DNA from: an uncultured Nitrospinaceae bacterium
GTDB lineage: Bacteria > UBA8248
Length of the DNA: 57,688 bases
Direction of reading: 5' to 3'
NCBI GenBank assembly: GCA_964558115.1
Contig: CAZLCI010000004.1
Span: 1-57,688 of the forward strand
Shown here piece by piece: positions 15,917 through 30,402 of the stretch. The number at the start of each line of letters is the position of its first letter. Position 1 is the stretch's first letter. The position numbers were made by a program, and so were the translations under genes. Under the pieces are notes generated by a model. The model searched no databases. It saw only the letters and a list, made by a program, of their open reading frames with translations, and was not told the origin of the DNA.

Positions 15917-16786
15917 TTATAAAGTAGTAATAAAAATTCCTCCCAAAACTATTAAAATCGTTGCCATTACAATTTGCTTGGTAATCTTTTCAAGTTTTCC
16001 TAGGAAAATATAACTAAAAATTAGAAGCCATATGGGAGCAGTTCTACTTAGAGGAATTGCTATAGATACAGGAGAAATCATTATTGCATTAATCAAAAGA
16101 GAAGAACTGCAGAAATTGAAAATACCACTTAATAATATCCAAAGAACATCTGCTCTACTCTTTACCGAAACTTTTTGTTTTAAAATAGGACTACTTAAAA
16201 GAAGAAAAATATTACCTACAAGAAATCCAATTCCTAAACCAGCCATTGGTATTTTTTGTTCATTTAAAGCAAGTTTTGCAAAAACTGGAGCAAGTGCATA
16301 TGCTATGGAAGCAAGTATTGGAAATATCACACCCTTTTGAAACCAATCAGAAATTCTTTTTTTGGAATTAAATTTCACACTGAGGATTATGACACCAAAA
16401 ACTATGGAAATTGTTCCTAAAATATCCCAAAATGTGGGATTTTCTCCTAAAATAAAAATCGCAATAAATGTAACCCAAAAAGGAGTGATAGCAGAAATAG
16501 TAACGGAAGGATTTAGGCCAACTTTGTTAATTCCAATAAGTCGTGTTATACGTCCGAATCCAGGACCTGTCATGCCCATTGCTACAAACCAAAGAATCGT
16601 TTTTAACGATAATTGATTGAATGAACCTTGATAAAAGCAAACTATAAGACCGCCAGTTGAAACAACAGTATTGACAATTAATGCAGCCAAAAGAGGAGAA
16701 GCAGTTCTCATCCCTTGCCTTATACTTATATGTGCAAAAGCTGCAATAATTGCAGAACTTGCTGCCATAAGTTCGCCGATTCCCAT
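15917..16786 (-). CDS. DMT/EamA family transporter
   Basis: About 10 TM segments in two repeats, FILGE motif. Confidence 0.85.
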   Translation of the reverse strand: MGIGELMAASSAIIAAFAHISIRQGMRTASPLLAALIVNTVVSTGGLIVCFYQGSFNQLSLKTILWFVAMGMTGPGFGRITRLIGINKVGLNPSVTISAITPFWVTFIAIFILGENPTFWDILGTISIVFGVIILSVKFNSKKRISDWFQKGVIFPILASIAYALAPVFAKLALNEQKIPMAGLGIGFLVGNIFLLLSSPILKQKVSVKSRADVLWILLSGIFNFCSSSLLINAIMISPVSIAIPLSRTAPIWLLIFSYIFLGKLEKITKQIVMATILIVLGGIFITTL

Positions 16787-22499: not shown

Positions 22500-23057
22500 A
22501 TGGAAAAGCCTATCGATGGGTTCGAAACGTCTAGTGAAATTGGAAAACGTGTTATTGATCAACCAGAACTTCCCTCACAAGGTTTAGCTACAGATTCTGA
22601 AGTTTTTACTGAAGTTGTTGAAGGTCAGATTCAACTAAAAAAAGGGACCGTTAGACATTTTGAGGTTTTTTGTGATGAACAAGAAAGAATAGGTGGGACT
22701 GATAAATATCCATCTCCAATGTCCTATATGGCAATGGGAACTGGTTTCTGACTTCTAACCCAAGTTGCGCGGTACGCGCATATGATGAAAATTGATATTG
22801 AGAAGGCAAGTGTGAAGGTTAGGTTTCGTAAATTGTTAGGAGGTTCTGTATTAAAGGGTACAGTTTTTAATAAGTGGCAAGGAGTAGATACGCATTTAAT
22901 AGTAGAATCAAAAGCTCCAAAAGATAAAATTGCACACCTAATTCGAAATGCAAAAAATGGTTGCTTTGCAGAAGGGCTAATAGTGCAGTCCGTACCATTG
23001 ACAAGCACTATTGAGTTAAATGGGGAAAAACTAGATTTGGAAGGAATAACAGATTAG
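22500..23057 (+). CDS. OsmC/Ohr-like selenoprotein, 185 aa, Sec84 at TGA 22749-22751
   Basis: ORFs 22500..22751 and 22782..23057 are in frame and joined by stop-free LLTQVARYAH; GGTD.YPSP.SY....GF-U-L.TQ..RYA puts TGA at the OsmC catalytic Cys; second Cys in AKNGCFAE; SECIS-like hairpin follows. Confidence 0.88.
22766..22780 (+). promoter_or_regulatory. Putative bacterial SECIS hairpin of the OsmC-like gene
   Basis: TGCGC-GGTAC-GCGCA: GC-rich stem in an AT-rich region; loop begins GGU with 19 nt between UGA and loop. Confidence 0.75.
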
Positions 23058-27433: not shown

Positions 27434-28309
27434 TTATAATGCATACCTTTTTAGAAATTTACGTAGGGTCTCTTCGTATTTTTTTAAATCTGCAACCATA
27501 GGGAAGTGACCGCTTTTCTTCAGTGTTTTTATAATTGTACCCTTAGGAAGTAATGCTTTTAGTTTTCTTACCTCTTGTGGAGTATTCCTTTTGGTCTTGC
27601 CGCCTCTTAATATTAGAACTGGACATTTCACTAGAGGAGCAATTGGAAAAGGGTCATAGTCACTCTTTATAGATGCTTGAAAAGTCCTTAGTTTGAAAAA
27701 CCAGTTTTTATCAAAAGGCATTCTACATGGACCATTTAAATCATTATAAAGCAGAAGATTCTTTACAAATTGTAATGATTCTTTTTTTGGCCATTCACCG
27801 TTCTCTGATCTTGAAAAGTATTCAACAGCACTTTTTAAATTTTTGAATGAGTTTGGTTGTGCGAAGTTTTCTTTAAGACCTTTAGCTCTTATTTCTAAGG
27901 GTCTTGAAGGAACGTCAACTAATACTATACAACGAATTCTTTTTGGAATTAGTGATGCAAGATGAAGAACATGTGCGGCTCCAAAAGAGTGTCCAAACAA
28001 GCTGAACTGATCTAATTTAAGCTTGTTAGCTAAATTAAGAGCGTCCTTTGCAAAGGATTTTGAAGAAAATGGATGTCTTGGTGAACCAGCGTCACTTAAC
28101 CCATATCCCCTTTGATCTGGACAAATAAAGTGCCACTCTTTCAGTTTTTCTGCTGTGGAATTCCACATTCCAGACTGCATTCTAGAACCATGCAAGGCTA
28201 GTATAGGAAATTTTTTTAATTTTTGTTTTGGTTTCCACTCATTTATGTACATAAGAAAATTTGAAATTAAGTGGTAGGACTCTTTCCATCTTTGATTTTG
28301 ACTATTCAT
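27434..28309 (-). CDS. Alpha/beta fold hydrolase
   Basis: LHG, DQRGYGLS, GHSFG, SGHF. Confidence 0.9.
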   Translation of the reverse strand: MNSQNQRWKESYHLISNFLMYINEWKPKQKLKKFPILALHGSRMQSGMWNSTAEKLKEWHFICPDQRGYGLSDAGSPRHPFSSKSFAKDALNLANKLKLDQFSLFGHSFGAAHVLHLASLIPKRIRCIVLVDVPSRPLEIRAKGLKENFAQPNSFKNLKSAVEYFSRSENGEWPKKESLQFVKNLLLYNDLNGPCRMPFDKNWFFKLRTFQASIKSDYDPFPIAPLVKCPVLILRGGKTKRNTPQEVRKLKALLPKGTIIKTLKKSGHFPMVADLKKYEETLRKFLKRYAL

Positions 28310-28436
28310 ATAAACTCCATTTTTTTAATTTCGAAGATTTTTTATTTTTTACATGATATCTTGTATAAAACTTTTTTTACACAATTAAAAAATAAATCTA
28401 ATTTTTGGTTACTCAATTTTTGAAAAGGGAGAAAAA

Positions 28437-29018
28437 ATGGGGAGAATAAGCGCTTTAAACGATAAAGCAAAAGGAGGTCATGAAGATAGTTTCGAGGTTT
28501 CTCGAAAACGTTGGGGCAGTGTTCCTAATTTTTACAGGACTCTCGCACATTCCCCTAAAGCTCTTCATCATATTATGGAACTCTCTTATGAACTTAGAAA
28601 GAGGTGGAGAGAAGACCCTGAAAGACTCAGACTCATGCAACTTGCAATTGTGAAACCTTCAATGATGAATCAATGCTTAATATGAACAACACATAATCAG
28701 GAGCTTGGTCAAGTTGCCGGATTAGAAGAAAAACATTTCAACGAACTTATGGGAAATTGGAGTGATAGTGAATTATATGATGATCGAGAAAAAGCGGTTA
28801 TTCGATGGGCTGAGTCCTTGACGGAGAATACTGCTCGAGATGACGACAATGCATTTTTGGAATTGAAAAAATATTTTAATGAACAAGATATTGTAGAACT
28901 TACTTTATTTACCTGTTTGTTTAATGCCTGGAATCGTTTGCAAGATGGATTTCAAAATGATTTGGAACCACCTGAAGGTCGTATTGAATGGACTCCAGAT
29001 TGGCAAGAATCTTCTTAA
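28437..29018 (+). CDS. AhpD/carboxymuconolactone decarboxylase-like selenoprotein, 193 aa, CxxU (Sec83 at TGA 28683-28685)
   Basis: ORFs 28437..28685 and 28749..29018 are in frame and joined by stop-free TTHNQELGQVAGLEEKHFNEL; S..NQCLI-U-..H corresponds to AhpD CxxC..H; C-terminal half has REKA....AE.LT and IVELT.....N..NR; SECIS-like hairpin follows. Confidence 0.9.
28694..28724 (+). promoter_or_regulatory. Putative bacterial SECIS hairpin of the AhpD-like gene
   Basis: TAATC-a-GG-AGCTT-[GGTC]-AAGTT-g-CC-g-GATTA; GGUC loop with 21 nt between UGA and loop. Confidence 0.75.
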
Positions 29019-29040
29019 AATATTATTACAGGAGACTTAT

Positions 29041-30396
29041 ATGACCTTTAAAAAGTATCGTCCTCTTGAAAATTCATTACTTACTTTTCATAATTATATT
29101 CCTAACTTCCTCAAAGGAACTGATAATCCTCGAGAGTATCTTGAAAGATGTCTCGCTCAAATTGATCTATTGGAGTCTAAAGTTAAAGCTTTTGTCGTTA
29201 TGAATATAGAATCCGCCAGAAAAATTGCAGATGCATCTACTAAGAGATATCAAGCTGGGAAGCCCCTCTCGGTTGTAGACGGTATGCCATTTGGAGTTAA
29301 AGATCTATACGAAACAATAGATATGAAAACACAGATGAATAGTCGGGTTTATAAGGATTGGCAAGGTATTAGAGACAGTGCCCATGCTTTTTCGCTAAGA
29401 CAGGGCGGTGCTATTATTCTTGGAAAAACTTCAACCACAGAATTTGGTATGGCAACACCACCTCCAACAAGAAATCCTTATAATTACGATAAAACTGCTG
29501 GTGGCTCTTCAAGCGGAAGTTCGGCGGCTGTGGGAGCAGCCATGATTCCTGCTGCTTCTGGAAGTCAGGTTAGAGGTTCTATAGTTAGACCGGCTGGATA
29601 TTGTGCAAATTTTGCTTTAAAACCAACTTTTGGCGCTATTAATAGGGGAGGTGGGCACTCATTGGCTCCTAGCCAAAGCGTTCTTGGTGTACATGCTGGT
29701 TCGCTTGAAGACTGTTGGTCTACAGCTTTTTATATATCTTCCCATGCAGGAGGAGACGCGGGTTGTCCCGGCTTATTTGGAAATCCAACGATTGCAGAAT
29801 CAAAAAATCCGGGTGCGATTATTCGACTTGATTCCATTGGATGGGATTCGACAACCGATTCAACAAAAGAGGCCTTTGAAACTTTTTTGGAGAAATTGAA
29901 TCTTAGAGGTATTAAAATTATTTCGAGGAAGGATGATGATAGGATAGAAAAATTTGAAGAGGCATTGCGAGAGATTCCAGATTTTCTGTTCCGTATGCTT
30001 GGTTATGAATCTCGTTGGCCTTTAAAAGATTATCAATTATCTCATCCTGAATCACTTAGTCAAAAAATGATTGATTCGTTAGAGTTAGGCTTGTCTGTTT
30101 CTGTTGATGACTATAGATCGATCCTTAAGCAACGCCAAAAACTTCGAGATTTGCAAATTTCTTTAAAAGAAATTGCAGGTTCATTTTTACTTCTATGTTC
30201 CTGCGATCCTCCTCCTGATTATCCATATATAGGAGATCCTGTGTATGGTGATGTTTCATCTACTCTTGGAACTCCAGCGTTTTCGCTTCCGTTCATTGAA
30301 GTTGATGGTTTGCCAGTAGGTATTCAGTACATGGGATATCCTGGAGAGGACTATCAATTAGCGTGCAATTCTAAGTGGATGAAGGAAAATTTATAA
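29041..30396 (+). CDS. Amidase signature family protein
   Basis: G.PFGVKD, GKT.TTEF, GGSSSGSSAAV, SQVRGSIVRPA; ATG 29041 after AGGAG. Confidence 0.92.
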   Translation: MTFKKYRPLENSLLTFHNYIPNFLKGTDNPREYLERCLAQIDLLESKVKAFVVMNIESARKIADASTKRYQAGKPLSVVDGMPFGVKDLYETIDMKTQMNSRVYKDWQGIRDSAHAFSLRQGGAIILGKTSTTEFGMATPPPTRNPYNYDKTAGGSSSGSSAAVGAAMIPAASGSQVRGSIVRPAGYCANFALKPTFGAINRGGGHSLAPSQSVLGVHAGSLEDCWSTAFYISSHAGGDAGCPGLFGNPTIAESKNPGAIIRLDSIGWDSTTDSTKEAFETFLEKLNLRGIKIISRKDDDRIEKFEEALREIPDFLFRMLGYESRWPLKDYQLSHPESLSQKMIDSLELGLSVSVDDYRSILKQRQKLRDLQISLKEIAGSFLLLCSCDPPPDYPYIGDPVYGDVSSTLGTPAFSLPFIEVDGLPVGIQYMGYPGEDYQLACNSKWMKENL

Positions 30397-30402
30397 TTAT
30401 TT

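Follow-up and report, generated by a model that had tools for sequence, protein, structure and literature searches.

The window analysed here (57,688 nucleotides, positions 1 to 57,688 of the forward strand of contig CAZLCI010000004.1 in assembly GCA_964558115.1, from an uncultured Nitrospinaceae bacterium) carries at 28437-29018, on the forward strand, what is with high probability (about 0.88) a single gene that encodes a 193-residue selenoprotein in the AhpD-like superfamily (alkylhydroperoxidase D / carboxymuconolactone decarboxylase, CMD). Between ATG 28437 and TAA 29016-29018, a single TGA at 28683-28685 is all that interrupts the reading frame. This codon lies within the forward-strand sequence AAT CAA TGC TTA ATA TGA ACA ACA CAT (28668-28694) and would be read as selenocysteine (Sec, U83) in the redox motif C80-L-I-U83-T-T-H86 (28674-28694); a first-pass annotation of the window had proposed the reading NQCLI-U-TTH and the 193-residue read-through frame, and translation bears out both. 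Calling of open reading frames (ORFs) with translation table 11 returns two pieces instead, one of 82 residues from 28437 and one of 89 residues from ATG 28749. A Shine-Dalgarno-like GGGAG (28427-28431, forward strand) stands 5 nt 5' of the start codon at 28437, and this start is backed by orthologs that align from residue 1; no Shine-Dalgarno-like sequence is found upstream of ATG 28749. The first-pass annotation had placed a strong ribosome-binding site only at 28437, which holds for the two ORFs but is not literally true of the locus, because a perfect AAAGGAGGT followed by ATG occurs at 28471-28482, inside the selenoprotein gene and out of its frame. The ATG in question opens a 57-residue ORF (28480-28653, forward strand); the internal AAAGGAGGT and ATG are probably a by-product of coding, because they coincide with the conserved codons K-G-G-H.

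Homology unites the two pieces in one domain. In NCBIfam, TIGR01926 ('peroxidase-related enzyme') matches the joined protein without a break (E 2.1e-16, 60.2 bits) over residues 8-169 and profile positions 8-168 of 178, across U83; the NCBIfam families NF053654 ('YciW-related (seleno)protein', 5.9e-11) and NF041238 ('alkylhydroperoxidase-related (seleno)protein', 1.5e-5) match it more weakly. Neither half alone matches any family in a Pfam scan, in which the sole sub-threshold match of the joined protein and its halves is GCR1_C (E 0.055); the first-pass annotation had allowed for halves that hit unrelated families, and what is found is halves without matches and a joined protein that matches TIGR01926 continuously. 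A word-indexed protein search gave one match, a 109-residue C-terminal fragment, and an exhaustive phmmer search was used instead, in which the closest full-length proteins of the library share 41-42% identity with the joined protein. The best sequence matches in the PDB are Atu0492 (2gmy_A, E 4.6e-15) and PA0269/AhpD of Pseudomonas aeruginosa (7xw1, 2ijc, 2o4d; approximately 1.5e-11), followed by 2pfx, the debrominase Bmp8 (6ohi, 6ohj; E 4.1e-5), 2oyo and 2prr. These alignments place U83 opposite the second Cys of the CxxC motif in solved proteins that are true Cys proteins, as the first-pass annotation had expected. Of 39 full-length homologs, 33 have C and five have S in the column of C80, 35 have H in that of H86, and 37 have C in that of U83, the library proteins being printed with C in place of U.

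An AlphaFold2 model, made from an input alignment of these 39 homologs with C substituted for U, is all-helical and forms one compact domain, with a predicted local distance difference test score (pLDDT) of 93.7 and a predicted template modelling score (pTM) of 0.89. The model puts C80 and U83 at the start of the helix 81-93 and H86 one helical turn away. A Foldseek search with it returned 32 PDB chains at E<=0.001, every one of them AhpD-like or of the CMD family; probability was 1.00 for 2gmy, 3c1l, 6k40, 2prr, 2pfx, 6ohi and 6e8l, for which the query template modelling score (TMq) was 0.61-0.78. The top value of 0.78 belongs to 6k40, an alkyl hydroperoxide reductase of Deinococcus, and AhpD of Streptococcus pneumoniae is also among the matches. 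The predicted fold thus places the protein in the AhpD-like / CMD all-helical superfamily.

The TGA is conserved together with the protein around it. Of 42 genomes of the same family, 33, which represent seven of nine genera, contain a single-copy ortholog at E<=1e-60; the other nine (67-98% complete) gave none with this query. The 33 orthologs are 56-97% identical over their full length, and each contains exactly one TGA. In the 12 ortholog loci that were read, the motif N-[Q/D]-C-x-x-U-T-x-H-N is kept and the TGA occupies the same position within it, with an aliphatic residue (I, L or V) before Sec; the stretch from the TGA to ATG 28749 is conserved in frame across the orthologs, and relatives with high GC content retain the same TGA. 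A broader search of 41 related genomes gave 255 matches in 32 of them, and among the 150 of the 255 matches listed, which include relatives outside the family, each has exactly one TGA inside it. The ratio of nonsynonymous to synonymous substitution rates (dN/dS, Nei-Gojobori) is 0.014-0.078 in all 12 within-genus comparisons (six pairs, each split into two halves), and it does not differ between the N-terminal and C-terminal halves across the TGA.

These results bear on whether the TGA is a true stop, in which case the locus would be a gene that is split or in decay, or a pair of independent small ORFs of 82 and 89 residues. Table 11 calling returns exactly these two ORFs, and public collections contain orthologs only as 82-residue N-terminal and 85-109-residue C-terminal pieces, none of them named: one public cluster consists of 15 different 82-residue N-terminal products (P0018, P0156-P0169), some on contigs of approximately 2.9-3.1 Mb, and the C-terminal fragments P0002, P0005 and P0007 have 85-109 residues. 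However, all 33 orthologs, some as little as 56% identical, retain a single TGA at the same codon, and a pseudogene would not keep such dN/dS values on both sides of it. The in-frame conservation of the stretch up to 28749, the lack of a Shine-Dalgarno-like sequence there, the family match of the joined protein where the halves match none, and the single compact domain of the model also speak against a stop, which makes this explanation highly improbable.

Sequencing error was a further concern of the first-pass annotation, and the reads support the TGA. The stretch 28300-30400 is present in 20 listed runs from seven metagenome studies of marine or seawater samples, and one of these runs may be the source of the window. 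Four runs that come from three studies, two of DNA (X2, X7) and two of RNA libraries (X19, X20), all have contigs in which the TGA is unaltered. Contigs of the DNA run X2 cover 28300-29057 with zero differences, and over 28523-28856 the DNA run X7 contains variants from two strains, both with the TGA, one of which shows 32 differences. In the divergent X7 variant, 20 of the 21 listed differences lie at intervals divisible by three, as expected of third positions of codons. The RNA-library contigs that carry the TGA cover 28609-29032 (X19) and 28644-28811 (X20, a single contig in a run that contains a small share, 0.07, of the stretch); contigs from RNA libraries are no proof of transcription.

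The genome (2.11 Mb in 141 contigs, 96% complete, 34.9% GC) is equipped to insert selenocysteine. It encodes selA (569.1 bits) and selB (406.8 bits), adjacent on contig C23, selD (334.8 bits; C2:33365-34327) and a tRNA-Sec (76.6 bits with the Rfam model; identified by ARAGORN as tRNA-SeC with anticodon TCA), all of which score over their curated cut-offs, so that the selABCD complement for which the first-pass annotation had asked is found. Because selD itself has one in-frame TGA, SelD is predicted to be a Sec-containing selenophosphate synthetase. An alternative in which UGA is read through as Trp, Cys or Gly, by a changed genetic code or by near-cognate suppression, would find some encouragement in the AT-rich (34.9% GC) and small (2.1 Mb) genome; AT-rich small genomes are seen in some lineages that recode TGA. 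Yet TGA terminates 182 of 1012 stop-to-stop ORFs of at least 300 codons and is therefore a normal stop in this genome, so that a changed code is not the cause of the read-through. The complete Sec machinery, the place of U83 at the redox Cys of CxxC in homologs, the conserved stem-loop at the distance of a selenocysteine insertion sequence (SECIS), and the retention of the same TGA in high-GC relatives leave insertion of an ordinary amino acid with very little probability.

The putative SECIS of the gene has as its conserved core (28702-28715, forward strand) a 5-bp stem (28702-28706 with 28711-28715), which begins 19 nt downstream of the first UGA base, and a GGUC loop (28707-28710), present in 12 of 12 orthologs. 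RNAfold extends it to the hairpin 28694-28724 (forward strand) described in the first-pass annotation, in which 28694-28698 pair with 28720-28724 and 28700-28706 with 28711-28718 at -8.6 kcal/mol. The bSECISearch literature reportedly describes a bacterial SECIS as a stem-loop that closely follows the UGA on its 3' side and has G in the apical loop, and the 5-bp stem with its GGUC loop has this arrangement. Like the SECIS of E. coli fdhF, whose loop is GGUC, the hairpin lies shortly 3' of the UGA; unlike it, only 5 bp are conserved across genera. In an alignment of 48 nt from the UGA in 12 orthologs (11 distinct sequences), GGUC is invariant (columns 25-28) and the flanking columns 20-24 and 29-33 pair in 12 of 12. 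Two of these stem pairs show compensatory changes, A-U to G-C in four sequences and U-A to C-G in two, which include a synonymous change in third position, from GCT to GCC, paired with a change of GAG to GGG; the stem of the window itself has one change of G-C to G-U. In the X7 variant, T>C at 28714 turns this G-U pair into G-C. Across all 12 pairs of the extended hairpin, pairing holds in 80.3% of cells, compared to 21-43% when the partners are slid. The lower-stem pairs 14-40, 15-39, 16-38 and 18-36 are broken in four to seven of the 11 distinct sequences, and therefore only the apical part is conserved beyond the genus. Of seven paralogs examined in the same genome, from contigs other than C18, five have at this offset a stem that differs in sequence and ends in a GGUC or GGAC loop, and the other two fold differently.

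Several results weigh against the selenoprotein reading or against parts of it. The support for selenium incorporation and for translation past the UGA comes from sequence and a structural model. All four NCBIfam matches score under their curated cut-offs (for TIGR01926, 60.2 bits against 81.8), and Pfam CMD (PF02627) has no match at E<=0.1 in the joined protein or either half; the first-pass annotation had predicted one continuous AhpD/CMD domain hit, of which the continuity across U stood and the Pfam CMD match did not. Some of the 37 'C' residues at the U83 column could be annotated Sec, because U is printed as C in the library. With 5 conserved base pairs, the stem is short for a SECIS, no Rfam SECIS family is found at E<=10 over 28300-29200, and conservation of the stem is partly driven by the protein, because the stem overlaps the conserved codons L-G-Q/R-A. 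(Seven other Rfam matches at E<=10 over the same interval are to snoRNA and sRNA models, lie far below their gathering scores and were rejected.) The folding energy of the hairpin is no better than that of shuffled sequences (z -0.75; 46 of 200 fold as well), although conservation of the TGA, the dN/dS values and the compensatory stem changes together indicate more than chance despite this uninformative measure. The proton relay of AhpD is partly present, with Gln68 for Glu, Ile82 for Tyr/His, and His at +3 rather than +4. None of the eight peroxiredoxin-family (PF00578) matches in the genome is on the contig of the window (C4), in agreement with the first-pass annotation, which had noted no ahpC in the window, and no conserved neighbour at the 12 ortholog loci indicates a substrate.

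The relay residues decide how the protein is classified. The AhpD relay is given as Glu ... Cys-x-(Tyr/His)-Cys-x3-His (PMC3141380). In the alignment with PA0269, Gln68 is opposite Glu36, Ile82 opposite Tyr50 and Asn87 opposite His55, with His86 one position earlier; of the 39 homologs, 21 have E and 10 have Q at position 68, and 36 have Y at position 82. Since the relay is incomplete, the protein is assigned to the AhpD-like superfamily and to the class of CxxU selenoproteins rather than to AhpD proper, of which it has neither the full proton relay nor the linkage to ahpC or a peroxiredoxin. The most similar solved proteins, Atu0492 (2gmy) and PA0269 (2o4d/2ijc/7xw1), share its predicted helical fold and align CxxC to its CxxU, but they have Cys in place of Sec, are 145-153 residues long and are without its N-terminal 40 or so residues. 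Their relay as described in PMC3141380 comprises Glu (His in 2gmy), Tyr (Phe in 2gmy) and His at +4, for which the selenoprotein has Gln68, Ile82, and His86 at +3 with Asn87 at +4. AhpD of Mycobacterium tuberculosis (1knc/1gu9) has a CxxC-type redox centre and a helical CMD-type core and serves as a mechanistic template; it is a weak fold match (Foldseek E of approximately 1-1.6, TMq 0.33-0.47), and the selenoprotein gene is without an adjacent ahpC. The M. tuberculosis motif is described as lying in the C-terminal part of that protein (PMC3141380).

By analogy with the CxxC of AhpD-like proteins, the following mechanism may be proposed. SelB with Sec-tRNA(Sec), recruited by the stem-loop, would decode the UGA at 28683-28685 as selenocysteine, and C80 and U83 would form a CxxU redox pair. 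U83 would be the nucleophile that attacks the oxidised substrate; C80 would resolve the intermediate to a selenenylsulfide, which may then be re-reduced by a thiol system of the thioredoxin, glutaredoxin or lipoamide type.

Selenoproteins of this kind have been in print since 2005. The existence of CxxU AhpD-like selenoproteins as a marine family, which the first-pass annotation had taken as established, is documented in surveys of the Sargasso Sea, with 27 AhpD-like CxxU sequences assigned to COG2128 (PMC1088965), and of the Global Ocean Sampling expedition (GOS), where 'AhpD-like 1' (COG2128, CxxU) has 299 sequences and is the fourth most numerous family (PMC2398784). A table in a 2026 review lists 'AhpD-like protein, TIGR01926, CxxU' (PMC13188914). 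The protein of the window resembles this family in having Sec in place of the second Cys, in occurring in marine bacteria, in its length of approximately 190 residues and in its homology to TIGR01926. It differs from the COG2128/TIGR01926 family in scoring 60.2 bits where the cut-off is 81.8, and in having I, L or V before Sec where 36 of 39 homologs have Tyr; unlike the family at large, it forms a single-copy ortholog group of its own, which among the genomes searched was found only in the Nitrospinaceae-type family. In literature on Nitrospina, Nitrospinae or Nitrospinaceae together with selenium or selenoproteins, BSepDB alone was relevant; as described in PMC13326102, three genomes labelled Nitrospinota or Nitrospinaceae are among its ten richest, with 48-54 selenoprotein genes, and BSepDB and the supplements of papers may already list the orthologs. 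The conserved gene is real and has been missed by gene callers, and it is a new member only of a kind of protein long known; catalogues of bacterial selenoproteins exist, and a specialist would not be surprised by it.

The neighbours of the gene give few indications of its substrate. An amidase-signature gene (29041-30396, forward strand; Pfam Amidase 2e-52) follows 22 nt after the selenoprotein stop, where the first-pass annotation had placed an amidase, and is a possible operon partner; the 22-nt gap suggests that the two may be co-transcribed. No terminator-like site is found between 28525 and 29392, and a promoter scan returned seven promoter-like sites where 6.8 were expected, which is no usable signal. 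The X19 RNA-library contig (record 1, 28609-29032) ends short of 29041, and parts of the stretch have no RNA-library contig. The arrangement of alpha/beta hydrolase (reverse strand), selenoprotein gene and amidase is found at four of 12 ortholog loci, all in genus g1, and at the other eight, in other genera, the amidase and alpha/beta hydrolase are not beside the ortholog. Five of these eight have a divergent gene of the PIG-L/LmbE deacetylase family (PF02585) just upstream of the selenoprotein gene (L028 2506-3213, L029 2136-2900, L030 598-1305, L031 2457-3224 and L032 344-1051), and the gene downstream in the other genera encodes a 2-hydroxyacid dehydrogenase or a short-chain dehydrogenase/reductase (SDR). 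In the genus of the window, the alpha/beta hydrolase takes the place of PIG-L, and three PIG-L genes are on other contigs. PF02585 includes the deacetylases and conjugate amidases of mycothiol and bacillithiol pathways, and to connect the PIG-L neighbour with a low-molecular-weight thiol is speculative. Because the neighbours differ from one genus to the next, neither the amidase nor any other gene is a conserved partner.

As for function, a hydroperoxide substrate or a peroxiredoxin-linked antioxidant role is somewhat favoured, and another thiol- or selenol-dependent reduction is a less probable assignment. A specific form of the latter, in which the protein is a genuine selenoprotein with no link to peroxide or AhpC and acts as a stand-alone thiol/selenol reductase on a small molecule, could be a reductive dehalogenase resembling Bmp8 or a step tied to the neighbouring amide and ester hydrolases. 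Bmp8 (6ohi, 6ohj) is among the matches by sequence (E 4.1e-5) and by fold (Foldseek TMq 0.76), no peroxiredoxin is a neighbour, other residues stand in for the relay Glu and Tyr of AhpD, and the neighbours that do occur are hydrolases and dehydrogenases: an alpha/beta hydrolase and an amidase in g1, and PIG-L with a 2-hydroxyacid dehydrogenase or SDR in other genera. On the other hand, the best matches were deposited as antioxidant-defence or peroxidase-related proteins, the neighbours differ between genera with no conserved partner among them, and the eight peroxiredoxin-family genes of the genome could supply a partner in trans, so that a stand-alone reductase is possible but rather doubtful.

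The gene belongs to a larger group of predicted selenoprotein genes in the same genome. Nine TIGR01926-like loci were found, eight of which have a TGA at the CxxU position; besides the gene in the window these are at C18:3553-4074, C82:326-907, C77:5944-6486, C25:3729-4262, C91:92-637, C91:1677-2192 and C11:30301-30819, and the ninth locus (C50:12622-13101) encodes a CxxC form (C-E-F-C). Genomes of the family have 4-18 AhpD-like matches and 2-8 OsmC-like UxxT matches each. Four of the eight PF00578 matches also have an in-frame TGA (C11:15802-16158, C12:32820-33203, C12:33354-33722 and C5:49257-49667), and with SelD these four TGA-bearing peroxiredoxin genes suggest a large selenoproteome for a 2.1-Mb genome. 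The window itself contains a second hidden selenoprotein candidate, OsmC-like, at 22500-23057 (forward strand) with a TGA at 22749-22751 in the motif G-F-U-L-L-T (UxxT). Its read-through frame has 193 codons from 22476, with a likely start at ATG 22500; Pfam OsmC matches the read-through product at 1.9e-12 (47.9 bits, cut-off 27.5) in a domain of residues 74-176 that spans U, and a G+C-rich hairpin begins 17 nt after the UGA, with an uninformative folding energy (z -0.77). Homologs of this gene occur in 22 of 26 related genomes (E<=1e-10), nearly all matches listed having one TGA, and the genome of the window has five copies; OsmC-like UxxT selenoproteins are listed in PMC1088965. Two further read-through candidates from a motif scan of the window, at 16338 (forward strand) and 6720 (reverse strand), have no family matches and were rejected as chance.

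Because public collections contain only truncated pieces of the protein, a 193-residue redox protein is invisible to ordinary functional profiling of nitrite oxidisers in the ocean. The genome paper of Nitrospina gracilis reports that superoxide dismutase (SOD) and catalase are lacking and calls protection against reactive oxygen species (ROS) puzzling (PMC3578206); by a count of terms, 'seleno' is absent from its main text. The numbers of AhpD-like and OsmC-like UxxT matches per genome, together with the Sec-peroxiredoxin candidates, are the reason to consider that the gene might be one of a large, mostly unannotated set of Sec-dependent proteins of peroxidase type that replaces the missing catalase and SOD as the main defence against oxidative stress in marine nitrite-oxidising Nitrospinaceae, and that its ortholog group might be functionally distinct, relying on the low pKa of Sec and not on the relay Tyr; this is a tentative proposal that is more apt to be wrong than right. 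A multi-copy set of Sec-containing AhpD-like, OsmC-like and peroxiredoxin proteins would bear on the ROS puzzle and would tie nitrite oxidation to the supply of selenium.

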